A DNA stretch of 64,000 nucleotides, from contig JBGSMV010000042.1 in the NCBI GenBank assembly GCA_041739995.1, positions 1 through 64,000 on the forward strand. Direction: 5' to 3'. A program made the translations under genes and the position numbers. The notes beneath the pieces were generated by a model. It was not told the DNA's origin and ran no database searches. It worked only from the letters and a program-made list of their open reading frames with translations. The stretch comes from Bdellovibrionota bacterium. Lineage in GTDB: Bacteria > Bdellovibrionota_C > UBA2361 > JBGSMV01. Positions 59,109-64,000 of the stretch are shown here, in pieces; positions within the stretch are counted from its first letter, which is position 1, and every line of letters begins with the position of its first letter.

Positions 59109-60014
59109 CTAGGCGATATCTTTAAGGTTTTCTACGATCATAGTACCCACGCCTTCGTTTAAGAACAGCTCCATGAGCAAAGAGTCACTCCTGGTTCCGT
59201 CTATTATATGGGCGCGGTGCACACCGCCCTTTATCGCTTCAAGGCAAGCTTGGACTTTGGGCAACATGCCCGCCGTAACCTTGCCCGCTTCGACCATATC
59301 TTGAATCTGTTCAATATCAGCGTAGGAGACCAAAGAGGTTGGTTCAGATACGGAACGAAGCAGTCCAGGAACGTTCGAAAGTACGATCAGTTTTTCAGCG
59401 CCGATCGATTGTGCGACCTTAGAAGCAAGTGTGTCGGCATTGATATTAAAAATCTGCCCGCTCGTGCTCGCCGCTATCGGTGAAATTACAGGGACAAGAT
59501 TTTCCTTAAGAAACTTGCCTATCAGCTCCGTATTTATGGACTCGATCACGCCGACGTTCTCGAAGTCCACTAATTCAGTGCCGCCTTGATCTGATTGGAC
59601 ACGAAGTGGGGGACGCTTTGACGCAAGCACGATTTGAGCATCGGCACCCGAAAGCCCTAGTGCACGCACTCCATGTTTACCGAGTGCCGTGGTTACTGAT
59701 GTGGCCAGTTCGCCACAGAACACCATTACGGCAGCCTTCAGCGTCTGGTCGTCGGTGATACGTCGGCCCGCCTTTTTTACGGTCTCTAGCCCAAGTCTTT
59801 TGCTCAGCACATCAAGCTGAGGGCCACCACCGTGTATCAGCACAACCTTCATGCCAATGTGATGAATCAAGCTAATCTGACGGGCGACGTTTTCAAGTAC
59901 CGCTCCAGTGCAGAGTTCGCCGCCAAGTTTTAGGACAAATGTCTTGCCCTGAAACTCACGTACATAAGGGAGAATTTCTGTAAGCGCTTCGATACGGTTC
60001 ATGGTGTTCCTCAT
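59109..60014 (-). CDS. argB: N-acylglutamate kinase
   Basis: LPYVREFQGKTFVLKLGG, HGGGPQ, GRRITD, NINADT, GMLPKV, HIIDG, GVGT; start 60014 or 60002. Confidence 0.95.
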   Translation of the reverse strand: MRNTMNRIEALTEILPYVREFQGKTFVLKLGGELCTGAVLENVARQISLIHHIGMKVVLIHGGGPQLDVLSKRLGLETVKKAGRRITDDQTLKAAVMVFCGELATSVTTALGKHGVRALGLSGADAQIVLASKRPPLRVQSDQGGTELVDFENVGVIESINTELIGKFLKENLVPVISPIAASTSGQIFNINADTLASKVAQSIGAEKLIVLSNVPGLLRSVSEPTSLVSYADIEQIQDMVEAGKVTAGMLPKVQACLEAIKGGVHRAHIIDGTRSDSLLMELFLNEGVGTMIVENLKDIA

Positions 60015-60036: not shown

Positions 60037-61068
60037 TCACAGGTCAGTTTTAAGAATTTTTAAAAGCAAAGCATTCTGGGCGTGCATTCGGTTCGCCGCT
60101 TGCTGCTCAGTAAGGCTGCGTTTGCTGTCCAGTACTTCATCCGCTACTTCAACGTTCCGTCTTACCGGTAGGCAGTGCATGAAGTAAGAATCATTTCCGT
60201 GAGCCATGACTTCCTGGTCCATTATCCAAGGAAGCAACGACTTGCGATGTTCTAGTTCAAGTTCGCGGTGTCCTATAAAGCCAGGAGGTGTCCAACTCTT
60301 TGCGTATACAATATCAGCTCCTCGAACCGCCTGTTCTTGCTCATAGAAGACCTCGACGGATCCACCAGAACTGCCTGCGGCACTCTGAATCATAGACATT
60401 ATCTTTGGATCGAAGTCGTAGCCTTCCGGATGGGCAATGCGCAGTTGCAGCCCAAGTTGTGCGGCAATCAGCGCCGTGGAGTGAGGAACCGCAAGAGGAA
60501 GTTGTTTGGGGTGCGGTGCCCAAGAGAGGGTAAAAACCTTGCCGTGTAGCTTGTTGCCGAAAGTTTCGCGCAATGTGAGGGCATCGGCCAAGGCCTGACA
60601 GGGATGCCAGCAGCTTCCTTCCATACTAATAAGGGGAATATCAAGATGCTTGGTGAAGGCCGAGAGCACTGGTTCATCTCGGTCTTCCTCCCAAGAGGAA
60701 AGCTTGGAGAATGCTCTGACGCACACCGCATCAAAGTACTGAGAAAGCACTCCCGCTGCATCTTTGATGTGCTCAGTGCGGTCCCTATACATCATGGCAC
60801 CGTCCGCAAATTCCAGAGTCCACGAGTCGGCTCCTGGGGAGAGGACGACCGATTGTCCGCCGAGGCGAGCAATACCGGACTGAAAGGAGGCTCTAGTGCG
60901 CAGAGACGGGTTAAAAAACATAAGAGCAAGTACTCGCCCTGAAAGAGACGAGGAGAAGTCACGCCAGTGGCTTGATTTTCCCTTGGCTGCGAGTGCAAGG
61001 GCTTCGTCCAGCTCTTGGAGCGTCAAATCTGAAGTGCTTATAATTGATCTAGAAGATTTAGAAACCAT
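60037..61068 (-). CDS. argF: N-acyl-ornithine carbamoyltransferase (ArgF', AOTCase/SOTCase type)
   Basis: FFNPSLRTR, W.LEF.DG..M...EH loop, HPCQ, WAPHPK.LP, KSW, HCLPVRRN distinguish it from ordinary OTCase. Confidence 0.92.
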   Translation of the reverse strand: MVSKSSRSIISTSDLTLQELDEALALAAKGKSSHWRDFSSSLSGRVLALMFFNPSLRTRASFQSGIARLGGQSVVLSPGADSWTLEFADGAMMYRDRTEHIKDAAGVLSQYFDAVCVRAFSKLSSWEEDRDEPVLSAFTKHLDIPLISMEGSCWHPCQALADALTLRETFGNKLHGKVFTLSWAPHPKQLPLAVPHSTALIAAQLGLQLRIAHPEGYDFDPKIMSMIQSAAGSSGGSVEVFYEQEQAVRGADIVYAKSWTPPGFIGHRELELEHRKSLLPWIMDQEVMAHGNDSYFMHCLPVRRNVEVADEVLDSKRSLTEQQAANRMHAQNALLLKILKTDL

Positions 61069-61121: not shown

Positions 61122-62228
61122 TTACGGGAAAAGTGCGGCTGCGCAGAGCCCGGTAGTCTCAGGGATGTGGTACATCAAATTCATGTTTTGAATGGCATTT
61201 CCTGCGGCACCCTTTACCAGATTATCTAGCGTACTAATGACTACGACTTCGCTTCCTTGTTGCCGAACGGTTATGTCACAGAAATTTGAGCCGCGTACAT
61301 CGAGCACCCGTGGAGTAACGTCTCTATAGCGCATGAAGAACTCAGTCGCGCAGAATTTCCGGTAGAGTTCGACTACATCTACAGAGCCGTCGGGAATGGT
61401 AACGAAGCTTGTGGAATAGATTCCTCGCGAGAAGTTGCCAGAATGTGGAACCAGATGAATCTTGGTAGCGCCACTTTGCGCGAGGGAGAGCGCTTGCTCG
61501 ATTTCTGGGCCGTGCCTATGAGTCAGTACCTCATATGAACTCATGGATTCGTTTCTTGCTGGGTGATGTGTTTTGGCGGTGGCGGTCACGCCACTACCTG
61601 TGGATCCAGTCACCGCTGAGACTCTCGCAACAAGTGGATGTTTGCCAAAGTGAAGAACTAAAGGGAGAAGTCCCAGCGTTACGCAGTTTGCAAAGCAGCC
61701 TGGGTTTGCCACTAGTCGAGCAGACTTTATGCCGTCACGGGAAACCTCCGGCGTGCCATACACCGCCTCGGCAATCAGTTCAGGGCAGGGGTGCTGTTGT
61801 TTATAAAACTGACTAAAGTGTTCAGCGGAAAGTCGAAAGTCTGCCCCTAGATCAATGATTCGCAGATCGCCCGAGACAAAACGCTCACATTTGGATATGG
61901 CGCCGATAACCGGAGACGACTGAGCGTGAGGTACTGCAAAGAACAACAAATCAAGTTCCGCAAAAGCGCTATCGAGCACTTCGATAGGTGAGCCAAGCGC
62001 TGGTGGTTCAACAAAGATGAGGGGGCAAAGTCCTTCAAGCGACGGATGCACTGACGCCACGCTTTTCCCGGCATACTCTCTGGAGGTGACAAGGGCTAGA
62101 TCCGCTTGGACATGGTTTAAAAGCAGGCGCATGAGCTCTAGACCGACGTAGCCCGAGCCTCCGAATACGCCTACTTTGAGCGGTGCTCCACTCGAGGGCT
62201 GCCTCTGGTTTTCTAGAGACCTCTTCAT
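61122..62228 (-). CDS. argC: N-acyl-gamma-glutamyl-phosphate reductase
   Basis: GGSGYVG, IDLGADFR, YGTPE, ANPGC, HRH.PEI, DNLVKGAAGNAIQNMNL. Confidence 0.95.
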   Translation of the reverse strand: MKRSLENQRQPSSGAPLKVGVFGGSGYVGLELMRLLLNHVQADLALVTSREYAGKSVASVHPSLEGLCPLIFVEPPALGSPIEVLDSAFAELDLLFFAVPHAQSSPVIGAISKCERFVSGDLRIIDLGADFRLSAEHFSQFYKQQHPCPELIAEAVYGTPEVSRDGIKSARLVANPGCFANCVTLGLLPLVLHFGKHPLVARVSAVTGSTGSGVTATAKTHHPARNESMSSYEVLTHRHGPEIEQALSLAQSGATKIHLVPHSGNFSRGIYSTSFVTIPDGSVDVVELYRKFCATEFFMRYRDVTPRVLDVRGSNFCDITVRQQGSEVVVISTLDNLVKGAAGNAIQNMNLMYHIPETTGLCAAALFP

Positions 62229-63289
62229 GGAAGCTCCTCACCGAAAACTTGCTTGTATACAATCCCTGCGAACTCCCTGCCATCGCGCATAGCATTAGCT
62301 GCCTGCAATTTGAGTCTTGAACGAATGAAGTTTTTGCCCACGTCATTATCTGTGCAGGGGCCACAAATCACGGTTATTTCGTGGCATGGATGGTCGGACG
62401 GGAGGTTCGACAAGAACTCGTGAGCGCCCCAAGCAGCTACTGGATCGTTTGCACTTACCACGTGGGCAGAGGTAAATTTCATAATCTCTGGATCAGAAAG
62501 AATCGACATTGTGCCGTACTCGCCCATGATGCCGTCACCAAGTTCTAACACGATGCAGTCTGGCTTCTTCTCGCTGAGAGCTGCGATGACGCCTTTTGCT
62601 GAAGTAACTGCGTTGTCCGCAGTTGAAGTAACTATACCCGCGTCGGTAAAGTTCAGCACCGCGACTGCGCCGCAATCTGCCATTGCAAGCGTATCGCGCA
62701 TTAGGCTTACGCCCGTGAGCTTTGCCGCGCAGACCTTCTTCCCGGCGCGAGTAATGTGTTTCACCAACTCACAGGCCGCTCTGGTTTTCCCAGCATCCAT
62801 GCAAGTTCCAGAAATAACAATGAGTGGGGCGGCGTGGGGCAGGTCTTGTCGGGGGCGAATTTCGCCTTCGAGAATGGACGCTGGGGAACCGACACGTTGC
62901 AGAAAGTTAGGAAAATGCTGTACTGCTCCAAGCACTTCCATGTCTATGGGACGTCCGAGTTCAGCGTTGTCGCTAGTGCACTTGCCGACCACGCCTCCCA
63001 GATTCAGTATCTGCAACGTTTCACCGACCTTAATGGATTGAGGCACAATGCCACTGAATCCCTTTAAGGCGTTACGGGGACCCAAGACGCCAACTACGAC
63101 GTCATCACGATAGAGGCGGCTCATGCGCCCGGAAGCCAGCTCGATGGTGTTATAGTCAGAGCGCTCGTTGAGCAGGCGCCCAGCGATGATGAAGCCCTCT
63201 TTCGCGGTGATGTCGGGTGAAAGCGTGAGCTCAGACGAGAGCTTGGCGTTTCGAGCGGCGGAAGCGATTTTATCAGCGACAATTTTCAT
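62225..63289 (-). CDS. DUF1611-like P-loop protein; candidate N-acylglutamate synthase
   Basis: IELASGR, GVLGPRNA, LNLGGVVG, SGTCMDAGKT, AAKLTG...RD, FTDAG, ELGDG; stop overlaps the argC start (ATGA). Confidence 0.7.
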   Translation of the reverse strand: MKIVADKIASAARNAKLSSELTLSPDITAKEGFIIAGRLLNERSDYNTIELASGRMSRLYRDDVVVGVLGPRNALKGFSGIVPQSIKVGETLQILNLGGVVGKCTSDNAELGRPIDMEVLGAVQHFPNFLQRVGSPASILEGEIRPRQDLPHAAPLIVISGTCMDAGKTRAACELVKHITRAGKKVCAAKLTGVSLMRDTLAMADCGAVAVLNFTDAGIVTSTADNAVTSAKGVIAALSEKKPDCIVLELGDGIMGEYGTMSILSDPEIMKFTSAHVVSANDPVAAWGAHEFLSNLPSDHPCHEITVICGPCTDNDVGKNFIRSRLKLQAANAMRDGREFAGIVYKQVFGEELP

Positions 63290-63309: not shown

Positions 63310-63963
63310 TCACTTAAGCTTGGGGCTCTCTCGTCCAGAGATTGAATTCAGAATTCGTAGGGTGCGAGGCGCGTCTTCCTCGGTCACCACCATCATGAGC
63401 TCAGTCCAGCAGCTCATCTCTTCGACCACGTTCACTCCCTGCTCAGCGAGCACCCCGTAGATGAACGACACCACCCCGGGGGTTGATTCTAGGCGCTCAT
63501 CAAACAGCATTGAGATTTGAACGAGGTCAGCGCTGGTCTTTTTTATCTTACCTCGGAACTGTGCGCGAATTTCGGGTAGGTAATCCTGATTGGTGATCAG
63601 CACCAACACTTCAGCGCCTTCAATCAGGTGAAAGTCTCCGCGCTCTTGTCGCACAAAGGACTGAAGGCGATGCAGCTTCTCAAAGTCGCGGGGCTTTTCA
63701 ACGATGGCAACCGCCATTTGGTTGGTAGTGCGGATCGAGACACTTTTAAGGAGTGCACGCACCTTGGTCTCAAGCGACTCTTTTCCTTTTACGCGCTCAG
63801 AGTAGCGACGGCATGCCACCAGCACAGCATCAAAGTGTTTATCGCCAAACTCCTCGCAGATTTCCCGTGAGAGCGCAGAATAGTTTATCAGACCGCGCTT
63901 AAGGCAGTCCCGCACACTAGGACGCTCTGAGATGTAGTGCTGGGTGAGGCGGGTGATAGACAT
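63310..63963 (-). CDS. HTH plus ACT-domain protein, candidate amino-acid-responsive regulator
   Basis: N-terminal RPSVRDCLKRGLINYSALSREI...AVLVACRRY; C-terminal ACT TPGVVSFIYGVLAEQGVNVVEEMSCWTELMMVV. Confidence 0.75.
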   Translation of the reverse strand: MSITRLTQHYISERPSVRDCLKRGLINYSALSREICEEFGDKHFDAVLVACRRYSERVKGKESLETKVRALLKSVSIRTTNQMAVAIVEKPRDFEKLHRLQSFVRQERGDFHLIEGAEVLVLITNQDYLPEIRAQFRGKIKKTSADLVQISMLFDERLESTPGVVSFIYGVLAEQGVNVVEEMSCWTELMMVVTEEDAPRTLRILNSISGRESPKLK

Positions 63964-64000
63964 GGGCGAGAAAAGAGATTGGGGGTTTGGGCGCGCTGCG

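Follow-up and report, generated by a model that had tools for sequence, protein, structure and literature searches.

Gene organization of the locus

The sequence analysed here (the window) is a stretch of 64,000 nucleotides from a Bdellovibrionota bacterium. It represents the first 64000 nt of a 110-kb contig, and the reading was extended beyond the window end. Close to this end lies a reverse-strand ORF of 217 aa, the candidate regulator, which is called X throughout. The features in the window are listed below.

63310..63963, reverse strand: X, a DUF7523 plus double-ACT protein (Pfam, homologs, model with a pLDDT of 94.5)
63739..63963, reverse strand: five-helix N-domain of X, residues 1-75, DUF7523 (PF24367), proposed to bind DNA and to dimerise
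63340..63738, reverse strand: double ACT module of X, residues 76-208, aspartokinase regulatory type, proposed effector sensor
62225..63289, reverse strand: operon gene 2, DUF1611-like P-loop protein of 354 aa (weak match to PF07755, 14 bits only)
61122..62228, reverse strand: argC (TIGR01850, 313 bits)
60037..61068, reverse strand: argF', N-acetylornithine carbamoyltransferase type (NF003384, 384 bits, cut-off 288)
59109..60014, reverse strand: argB (TIGR00761, 218 bits)
63964..64000, no strand: first 37 of the 258 nt of the X-argG spacer, the rest lying past the window end

X begins with an ATG, and it is at this ATG that the conserved N-terminus of its homologs starts in the alignment. Its stop lies at 63310 and the downstream gene begins at 63289, which leaves a gap of 20 nt. 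The initial annotation gives this gap and the downstream genes correctly. Past the window end, argG is located at contig positions 64222-65439 on the forward strand (TIGR00032 match at contig 64231-65406). It is divergent from X, from which it is separated by the 258-nt spacer. The argH gene lies approximately 8 kb beyond argG on the same contig.

The initial annotation had also reported that the window lacks argR. Profile searches with Arg_repressor (PF01316) and Arg_repressor_C (PF02863) agree with this: both return 0 matches, in the window and in the assembly as a whole (91% complete).

Two enzymes of the operon deserve comment. The carbamoyltransferase scores as the N-acetylornithine type (384 bits with NF003384), the score with the ordinary ornithine carbamoyltransferase profile being under its cut-off. 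This implies that the route runs via acylcitrulline and that an ArgE-like deacylase would be needed. The DUF1611-like gene is wedged between X and argC, and no argA or argJ was seen in the operon. A sequence search of the PDB with the DUF1611-like protein gave 0 matches. The GapMind 2026 preprint (10.1101/2024.10.14.618325) predicts an alternative ArgA (N-acylglutamate synthase) in arg clusters, a protein very distantly homologous to D-glutamate acetyltransferase, and the DUF1611-like gene of the window may belong to this kind. The prediction bears on the neighbour of X and not on X itself.

Domain structure of X

The AlphaFold model of X, built on an alignment of 35 sequences, has a pLDDT of 94.5. 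Its N-domain consists of five helices (residues 3-12, 15-22, 28-39, 44-58 and 64-73) and is matched by Pfam DUF7523 over residues 5-75. The match covers positions 4-71 of the 158-position profile and scores 32.9 bits, above the cut-off of 27, or 29.4 bits in the genome search. This family is also matched in Haloferax volcanii. Two motifs are prominent, GLINYSALSR (residues 24-33) and ACRR (residues 50-53), and the residues N27, S29, L31, R33 and R53 are invariant in the homolog alignment. The GLINYSALSR motif had been recognized from the sequence as N-terminal and helical, and in the model it indeed occupies a loop and helix 28-39.

When folded alone, the N-domain is predicted with a pLDDT of 87.4. 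A Foldseek comparison of this domain with known structures gives no match at E<=0.001. A wide VIA search yields a best Z of 5.5, no better than noise for small helical domains, and it places homeodomains, ScpB and the ColE2 Rep DNA-binding domain at Z 4-5, inside this noise range. Comparison of X with Pfam at E<=0.1 gives no match to any HTH family, and an Atlas feature search with residues 1-75 retrieves only unnamed or DUF7523 clusters, with scores below 0.9. Since fold matches are absent or at noise level, DNA binding gains no structural support from them, and neither does the HTH label of the initial annotation.

The remainder of the protein has a familiar fold. Following the N-domain helices, the model includes two beta-alpha-beta-beta-alpha-beta units. 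Pfam recognizes only residues 157-206 (ACT_7, 20.7 bits; ACT_9, 17.5 bits), and both scores are under the 27-bit cut-offs. At the level of structure the relationship is clear: residues ~66-212 match aspartokinase regulatory domains with a Foldseek E of 2.6e-8, and the VIA comparison with 3s1t_B gives a Z of 14.5 and an rmsd of 2.2 A over 136 residues. A profile derived from the X-family alignment also retrieves aspartokinase 3l76 from the PDB (E 6.8e-5). The initial annotation was thus right in placing an ACT fold at the C-terminus, but the module is double, not single. Its analogy with CASTOR1 is borne out at fold level (VIA Z 9.2 with 5gs9_B).

Seven residues of the ACT module are invariant in the homolog alignment (G116, E159, G163, N178, E181, S184 and W186). 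The last three form part of an EEMSCW motif (residues 181-186), which is invariant in, and specific to, the arg-linked subfamily.

X is predicted to form a homodimer with a score of 0.74 (best of three controls, 0.00). Of 30 proteins solved as one-chain pairs, 20 attain this mark, compared with 1 of 23 whose structures contain a single chain. Contacts agree between runs to at least 81% and the partner pLDDT is at least 85. Because aspartokinase beta-subunit dimers are among the solved structures, the pass may reflect likeness to aspartokinase. The modelled interface includes residues 162-176, 181-186 (EEMSCW) and 12-34, and most of the invariant residues E159, G163, N178, E181, S184 and W186 fall within it. 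ACT effector sites usually sit at such interfaces between ACT units, and in the model the positions 162-176 and 181-186 are consistent with an effector site there. The most conserved N-terminal motif (residues 23-34) also lies inside the modelled interface and not on the exposed surface, which argues against GLINYSAL being an exposed recognition helix.

Relatives of X and their gene neighbourhoods

A word-indexed search retrieves 136 homologs of X at E<=1e-3. Among cluster representatives, 404 match at E<=1e-10, and 1114 do so at the looser threshold of E<=1e-3. The ORF is thus more than a chance reading frame. Where sources are named, these are Bdellovibrionota/Oligoflexia MAGs and DPANN archaea. 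We fetched 80 X loci from species-representative genomes, 33 with a bacterial and 47 with an archaeal label. The archaeal share of these loci, together with DUF7523 in Haloferax volcanii, supports the statement in the initial annotation that the architecture occurs mainly in uncharacterised archaeal proteins.

The fetched flanks were searched by tblastn with the arg proteins of the window. An arg gene accompanies X in 45 of the 80 loci (34/47 archaeal, 11/33 bacterial), so the neighbourhood survey suggested in the initial annotation ties X to arg genes in two domains. It is argG and argH that accompany X most constantly, and not the genes for the early steps of the pathway. Where argG is present (42 loci), it is always on the opposite strand and upstream of X (42/42), in 31 cases at a distance of 40-450 nt. 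The block of DUF1611-like gene, argC, argF' and argB, which follows X in the window, is found with it in only 9/80 loci.

In the 35 loci without a nearby arg gene the surroundings of X are mixed. Among the neighbours are LpxK, an EVE-domain protein with an aminotransferase, M20 peptidases, Asp/Glu racemase, carA, a NAT-type acetyltransferase and riboflavin genes. For example, X adjoins lpxK in one Bdellovibrionota clade (L008, L017, L018, L020 and L021; also G001), often with the EVE-domain gene and aminotransferase upstream. Four DPANN-type loci without arg neighbours (L063, L070, L071 and L076) have an Asp/Glu racemase gene upstream of X, at a distance of two genes.

The phylogeny is a quick tree with SH-aLRT support and a midpoint root, and both root and binning are uncertain. 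In this tree 30 Bdellovibrionota-type sequences cluster together (support 86) inside a clade (support 99) with seven Woesearchaeota-type sequences, nested among archaeal ones. The topology is compatible with transfer between the domains. Two X sequences from contigs with bacterial labels, L053 (Omnitrophica) and L063 (Nomurabacteria), nest among archaeal DPANN sequences. Their regions upstream of X look archaeal, and these contigs are probably mis-binned. Two archaeal-labelled loci (L048 and L057) carry argG, the DUF1611-like gene, argC and argF' upstream of X, and L048 also carries argB. The encoded proteins are 40-55% identical to those of the window. Either the entire cluster has moved between domains together with its regulator, or these contigs are mis-binned.

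Other forms of the protein were also observed. The genome of the window carries a distant paralog (contig C58, 41726-42496, reverse strand; E 7e-18) with a motif LFNLSQLAR and no EEMSCW. It adjoins a photolyase gene, is divergent from a MoxR-DUF58-BatA-type operon and has no link to an amino-acid gene. Three proteins of ~480 aa (P0228, P0231 and P0244) match X in two stretches and may have arisen when the entire architecture was duplicated in tandem or fused.

A palindromic box upstream of X

The spacers between X and argG contain a palindrome, TGTCC-N6-GGACA, with the variants TGTCT and TGTTC. This was first seen by eye in argG-adjacent loci, which are part of the same locus set, and was then tested. 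The pattern TGTYY-N6-RRACA occurs within 300 nt upstream of X in 62/79 loci, while the remaining ~796 kb of these loci contain 13 matches (0.016 per kb). It lies before X in both domains (41/47 archaeal-labelled and 21/33 bacterial-labelled loci) and is found in 25 of the 35 loci outside the discovery set, that is, those without a nearby arg gene. Positions A7 and T10 are each 85% conserved, though they are outside the search pattern. The modal distance from the box centre to the X ATG is 38 nt (12 loci). A second box is located at most 60 nt away in 8/62 loci, six of them with a spacing of 30 nt.

In the archaeal-labelled loci the box is closely associated with a TATA-like word. This word starts no more than 18 nt from the box on the X side in 37/41 loci and on the other side in 3/41, and directly follows the box in 16 loci. 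In this position an occupied box would block recognition of BRE and TATA, and it is the usual position for a repressor site.

Ten Woesearchaeota-type loci belong to a class with a spacing of ~150 nt. A conserved small ORF of ~35-60 codons (QTEL..YFDI....VEAFP) is located between the box/TATA-like word and X in nine of these (L014, L016, L019, L022, L029, L030, L032, L040 and L044) and extends into the start of X. The genome of the window lacks this ORF.

Two other analyses gave no clear signal. Enrichment of k-mers in the X-argG spacers yielded no more than a hint of half-site fragments, the AT-rich background being a confounding factor. Co-variation between the half-site (C/T at positions 4 and 5) and N-domain residues gave no specificity code: one archaeal clade with a TGTTC box has xEAILIAARR instead of FDAVLxACRR, but a bacterial clade with a TGTTT box does not, and the columns with the highest mutual information lie in the poorly aligned C-terminal tail of X.

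The box in the genome of the window

A motif search upstream of position 64000 had been suggested in the initial annotation. This yields the same box that is found in 62/79 loci, here between X and argG, and one weaker candidate:

contig 64122-64137, palindrome: O1, putative operator TGTCCTATATCGGACA, upstream of both genes, ~167 nt from the X ATG and ~92 nt from the argG ATG
contig 64033-64048: O2, possible weaker operator TGTCCAGCATTGGACT (TGTCC-N6-GGACT), weak evidence, matrix score only 4.6 bits

O1 is a perfect copy of TGTCC-N6-GGACA and is also found by an inverted-repeat search. With a matrix derived from the other loci it scores 23.5 bits, the best in the 3.8 Mb of the genome, where the next site scores 16.2. 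Five of the next-best sites were inspected (three on C5 and one each on C23 and C35). All lie inside ORFs and they were treated as noise. The loose box pattern is not enriched genome-wide (31 matches compared with ~53 expected from base composition). O2 adjoins a TTGACC word on the X side, and an equivalent is visible in the closest relative (L002). A scan of the X-argG spacer with sigma-70 promoter and terminator consensus sequences gave 0 sites.

Boxes distant from X and the distribution of ArgR

We have also examined genomes in which X is not beside arg genes. In five such genomes a stricter pattern, TGTYYNAWWTNRRACA, gives 28 sites compared with 2 for the reversed control. Boxes are located upstream of argC and argG in one genome (G001) and of argG in another (G004). 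Of 16 loci with the pattern in five genomes other than that of the window, one is the site of X itself, three are upstream of arg genes, one is beside a weak dimethylargininase-like match, and the rest are near unrelated or unannotated genes. In G001 one box immediately follows lpxK at its 3' end, away from X.

The ~430 nt upstream of argG were then compared between two sets of 20 genomes, one in which a strong X is located away from argG and one without X. A box of at least 12 bits is present in 6/20 of the former and 0/20 of the latter, counts that are not independent events because the genomes are related. The other 14 of the 20 X-containing genomes have no box upstream of their distant argG.

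If X simply replaced ArgR, the two would be expected to exclude each other. A survey of 124 genomes of the phylum does not bear this out. X is present at E<=1e-10 in 57 genomes (36 strong), Arg_repressor_C in 24 and ArgG in 99. Six of the 36 strong-X genomes also carry Arg_repressor_C, and 47 of the 99 ArgG-positive genomes have neither. The two proteins thus show no phyletic complementarity. ArgR is absent from the families with X beside arg genes (0/4 in f1 and 0/5 in f21).

Proposed function of X

The initial annotation offered two possibilities for X: an arginine-responsive repressor or an allosteric partner of the first enzyme. The linkage to arg genes (45/80 loci) and the conserved palindrome upstream of X (62/79 loci) favour a regulator. 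Allosteric partnership is a poor fit, as the DUF1611-like gene accompanies X in only 9/80 loci. We consider that X is probably an autoregulated, one-component, effector-sensing transcription factor of arginine genes which belongs to an undescribed family.

The mechanism that we propose is as follows. A dimer of X, or possibly a dimer of dimers, would bind the 16-bp TGTCC-N6-GGACA, and we infer that it would do so through the N-domain. The bound palindrome would sit between the X operon (X, the DUF1611-like gene, argC, argF' and argB) and the divergent argG. The double ACT module would bind an amino acid as its effector, most likely L-arginine, where the two subunits of the dimer meet. Binding of the effector would alter the occupancy of the operator, presumably in the direction of repression, and arginine would in this way feed back on the genes for its synthesis and on X. 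More tentatively, and with slightly less than even confidence, we suggest that X fuses a new DNA-binding helical fold to a double ACT sensor, that it acts as an arginine feedback regulator where ArgR is absent, and that the protein-operator pair is conserved between DPANN archaea and Bdellovibrionota.

The same architecture and operator could serve a different effector (citrulline, ornithine, argininosuccinate, aspartate or N-acyl intermediates) or respond to some general signal of nitrogen or amino acids, or X could be an activator and not a repressor. The nearest structural relatives of the module bind Thr or Lys, not Arg; argG and argH are the most constant neighbours, which makes a substrate-induced activator of the last steps conceivable; and the main bacterial box is upstream of the -35-like word, not over it. 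We nevertheless regard this as rather unlikely. End-product feedback is the usual logic of biosynthetic operons, the archaeal box abuts the TATA-like word in a repressor-like position, and the invariant EEMSCW at the predicted interface, an acidic and aromatic motif which the C58 paralog lacks, would suit a cationic ligand.

It is less probable still that X does not bind DNA at all. Aspartokinase beta and IlvH are ACT-type regulatory subunits of their enzymes, and X might likewise be a subunit or partner of the DUF1611-like protein, ArgG or ArgB, with another factor binding the palindrome. Its C-terminal module is most like the aspartokinase regulatory subunits, it lies just 20 nt upstream of the DUF1611-like gene in the window, and searches with the N-domain recognized no known DNA-binding fold. 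The rarity of the DUF1611-like gene beside X elsewhere (9/80) does not fit such a subunit. Moreover, argG is always divergent and never co-transcribed, a layout of regulator and target, not of subunits. Only X constantly adjoins the box, including in 25/35 loci without a nearby arg gene, and the box before a distant argG tracks X (6/20 compared with 0/20, in related genomes). The palindrome might also be an element that acts at the RNA level or independently of X (a leader hairpin or the site of a general factor), its association with X being incidental. Its 5-bp stem and 6-nt loop could fold in RNA, and X has no recognized nucleic-acid-binding fold. Against this, the box is upstream of and abuts the TATA-like word of X in 37/41 archaeal loci. 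Because it lies between divergent genes and upstream of this word, it is probably untranscribed. The half-site bases and the A/T at positions 7 and 10 are conserved, not pairing potential alone, and the site is unique in the 3.8-Mb genome. We therefore consider an RNA-level or incidental element very improbable.

Arginine regulation is textbook knowledge for ArgR, but to our knowledge it is not described for most archaea and many bacteria lacking ArgR. Our literature searches found no paper naming DUF7523, to which no function is attached, no publication on an X-type regulator and nothing that joins an arginine regulon with an ACT domain. Searches on regulators of arginine biosynthesis in Bdellovibrionota gave only unrelated papers. 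Those on ACT-domain arginine regulators, archaea and argG gave only the GapMind 2026 preprint (10.1101/2024.10.14.618325).

If X is indeed an arginine regulator, a function, an operator and a predicted regulon could be assigned to a family which has 404 cluster representatives at E<=1e-10, only some of them arg-linked. The aspartokinase-type ACT sensor would join the repertoire of prokaryotic transcription factors, and DPANN archaea would gain one of their few predictable gene-regulatory circuits. Under the more tentative proposal, one protein-operator pair would function both at the TBP/TFB promoters of archaea and at the sigma-factor promoters of bacteria, and would probably have crossed between the domains together with arg genes. 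Such a pair would provide a system for studying how one factor meets two basal transcription machineries. With a protein of 217 aa and a site of 16 bp, this reading is directly testable.

Comparison with known systems

The role proposed for X resembles that of ArgR/AhrC: arginine-responsive control of arg genes through a palindromic operator which is near promoters and sometimes in tandem, together with autoregulation. The proteins are nevertheless different. X has neither Arg_repressor (PF01316) nor Arg_repressor_C (PF02863) in Pfam at E<=0.1, and in place of the ArgR hexamerisation core it has a double ACT module as its proposed sensor. The operators also differ. ARG boxes have a consensus of the TGAAT..ATTCA type, whereas the X box is TGTYY-N6-RRACA.

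Lrp/AsnC-type regulators (such as the archaeal LysM), TyrR and NikR combine a DNA-binding domain with a small ACT/RAM-like sensor of amino acids or metal. X would follow the same logic of a DNA-binding domain plus a sensor in the control of amino-acid genes. It has, however, no match to a Pfam HTH (HTH_AsnC), RHH or RAM family at E<=0.1, and its sensor is of the two-unit aspartokinase type. COG2150, a predicted ACT-domain amino-acid regulator, may belong in the same context. With DUF7523 itself X shares its N-terminal 71 residues above the cut-off, although these cover only positions 4-71 of the 158 in the profile.

The closest structural likeness is to the regulatory domains of aspartokinase beta, with which residues ~66-212 share a fold (Z 13-14.5, rmsd 2.2-2.9 A, ~136 residues) and a predicted dimerization through ACT units. 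Identity is only 12-15%, and X has no kinase domain or partner and carries an additional N-terminal helical domain. CASTOR1 and CASTOR2 also have the aspartokinase-like ACT arrangement (Z 8-9.2, ~132 residues aligned), a likeness at fold level only, and CASTOR1 binds arginine according to the titles of its PDB entries. They differ from X in the organisms concerned, in the number of ACT units per chain and in their output, which is GATOR2 binding for the CASTOR proteins and, as proposed here, DNA for X.
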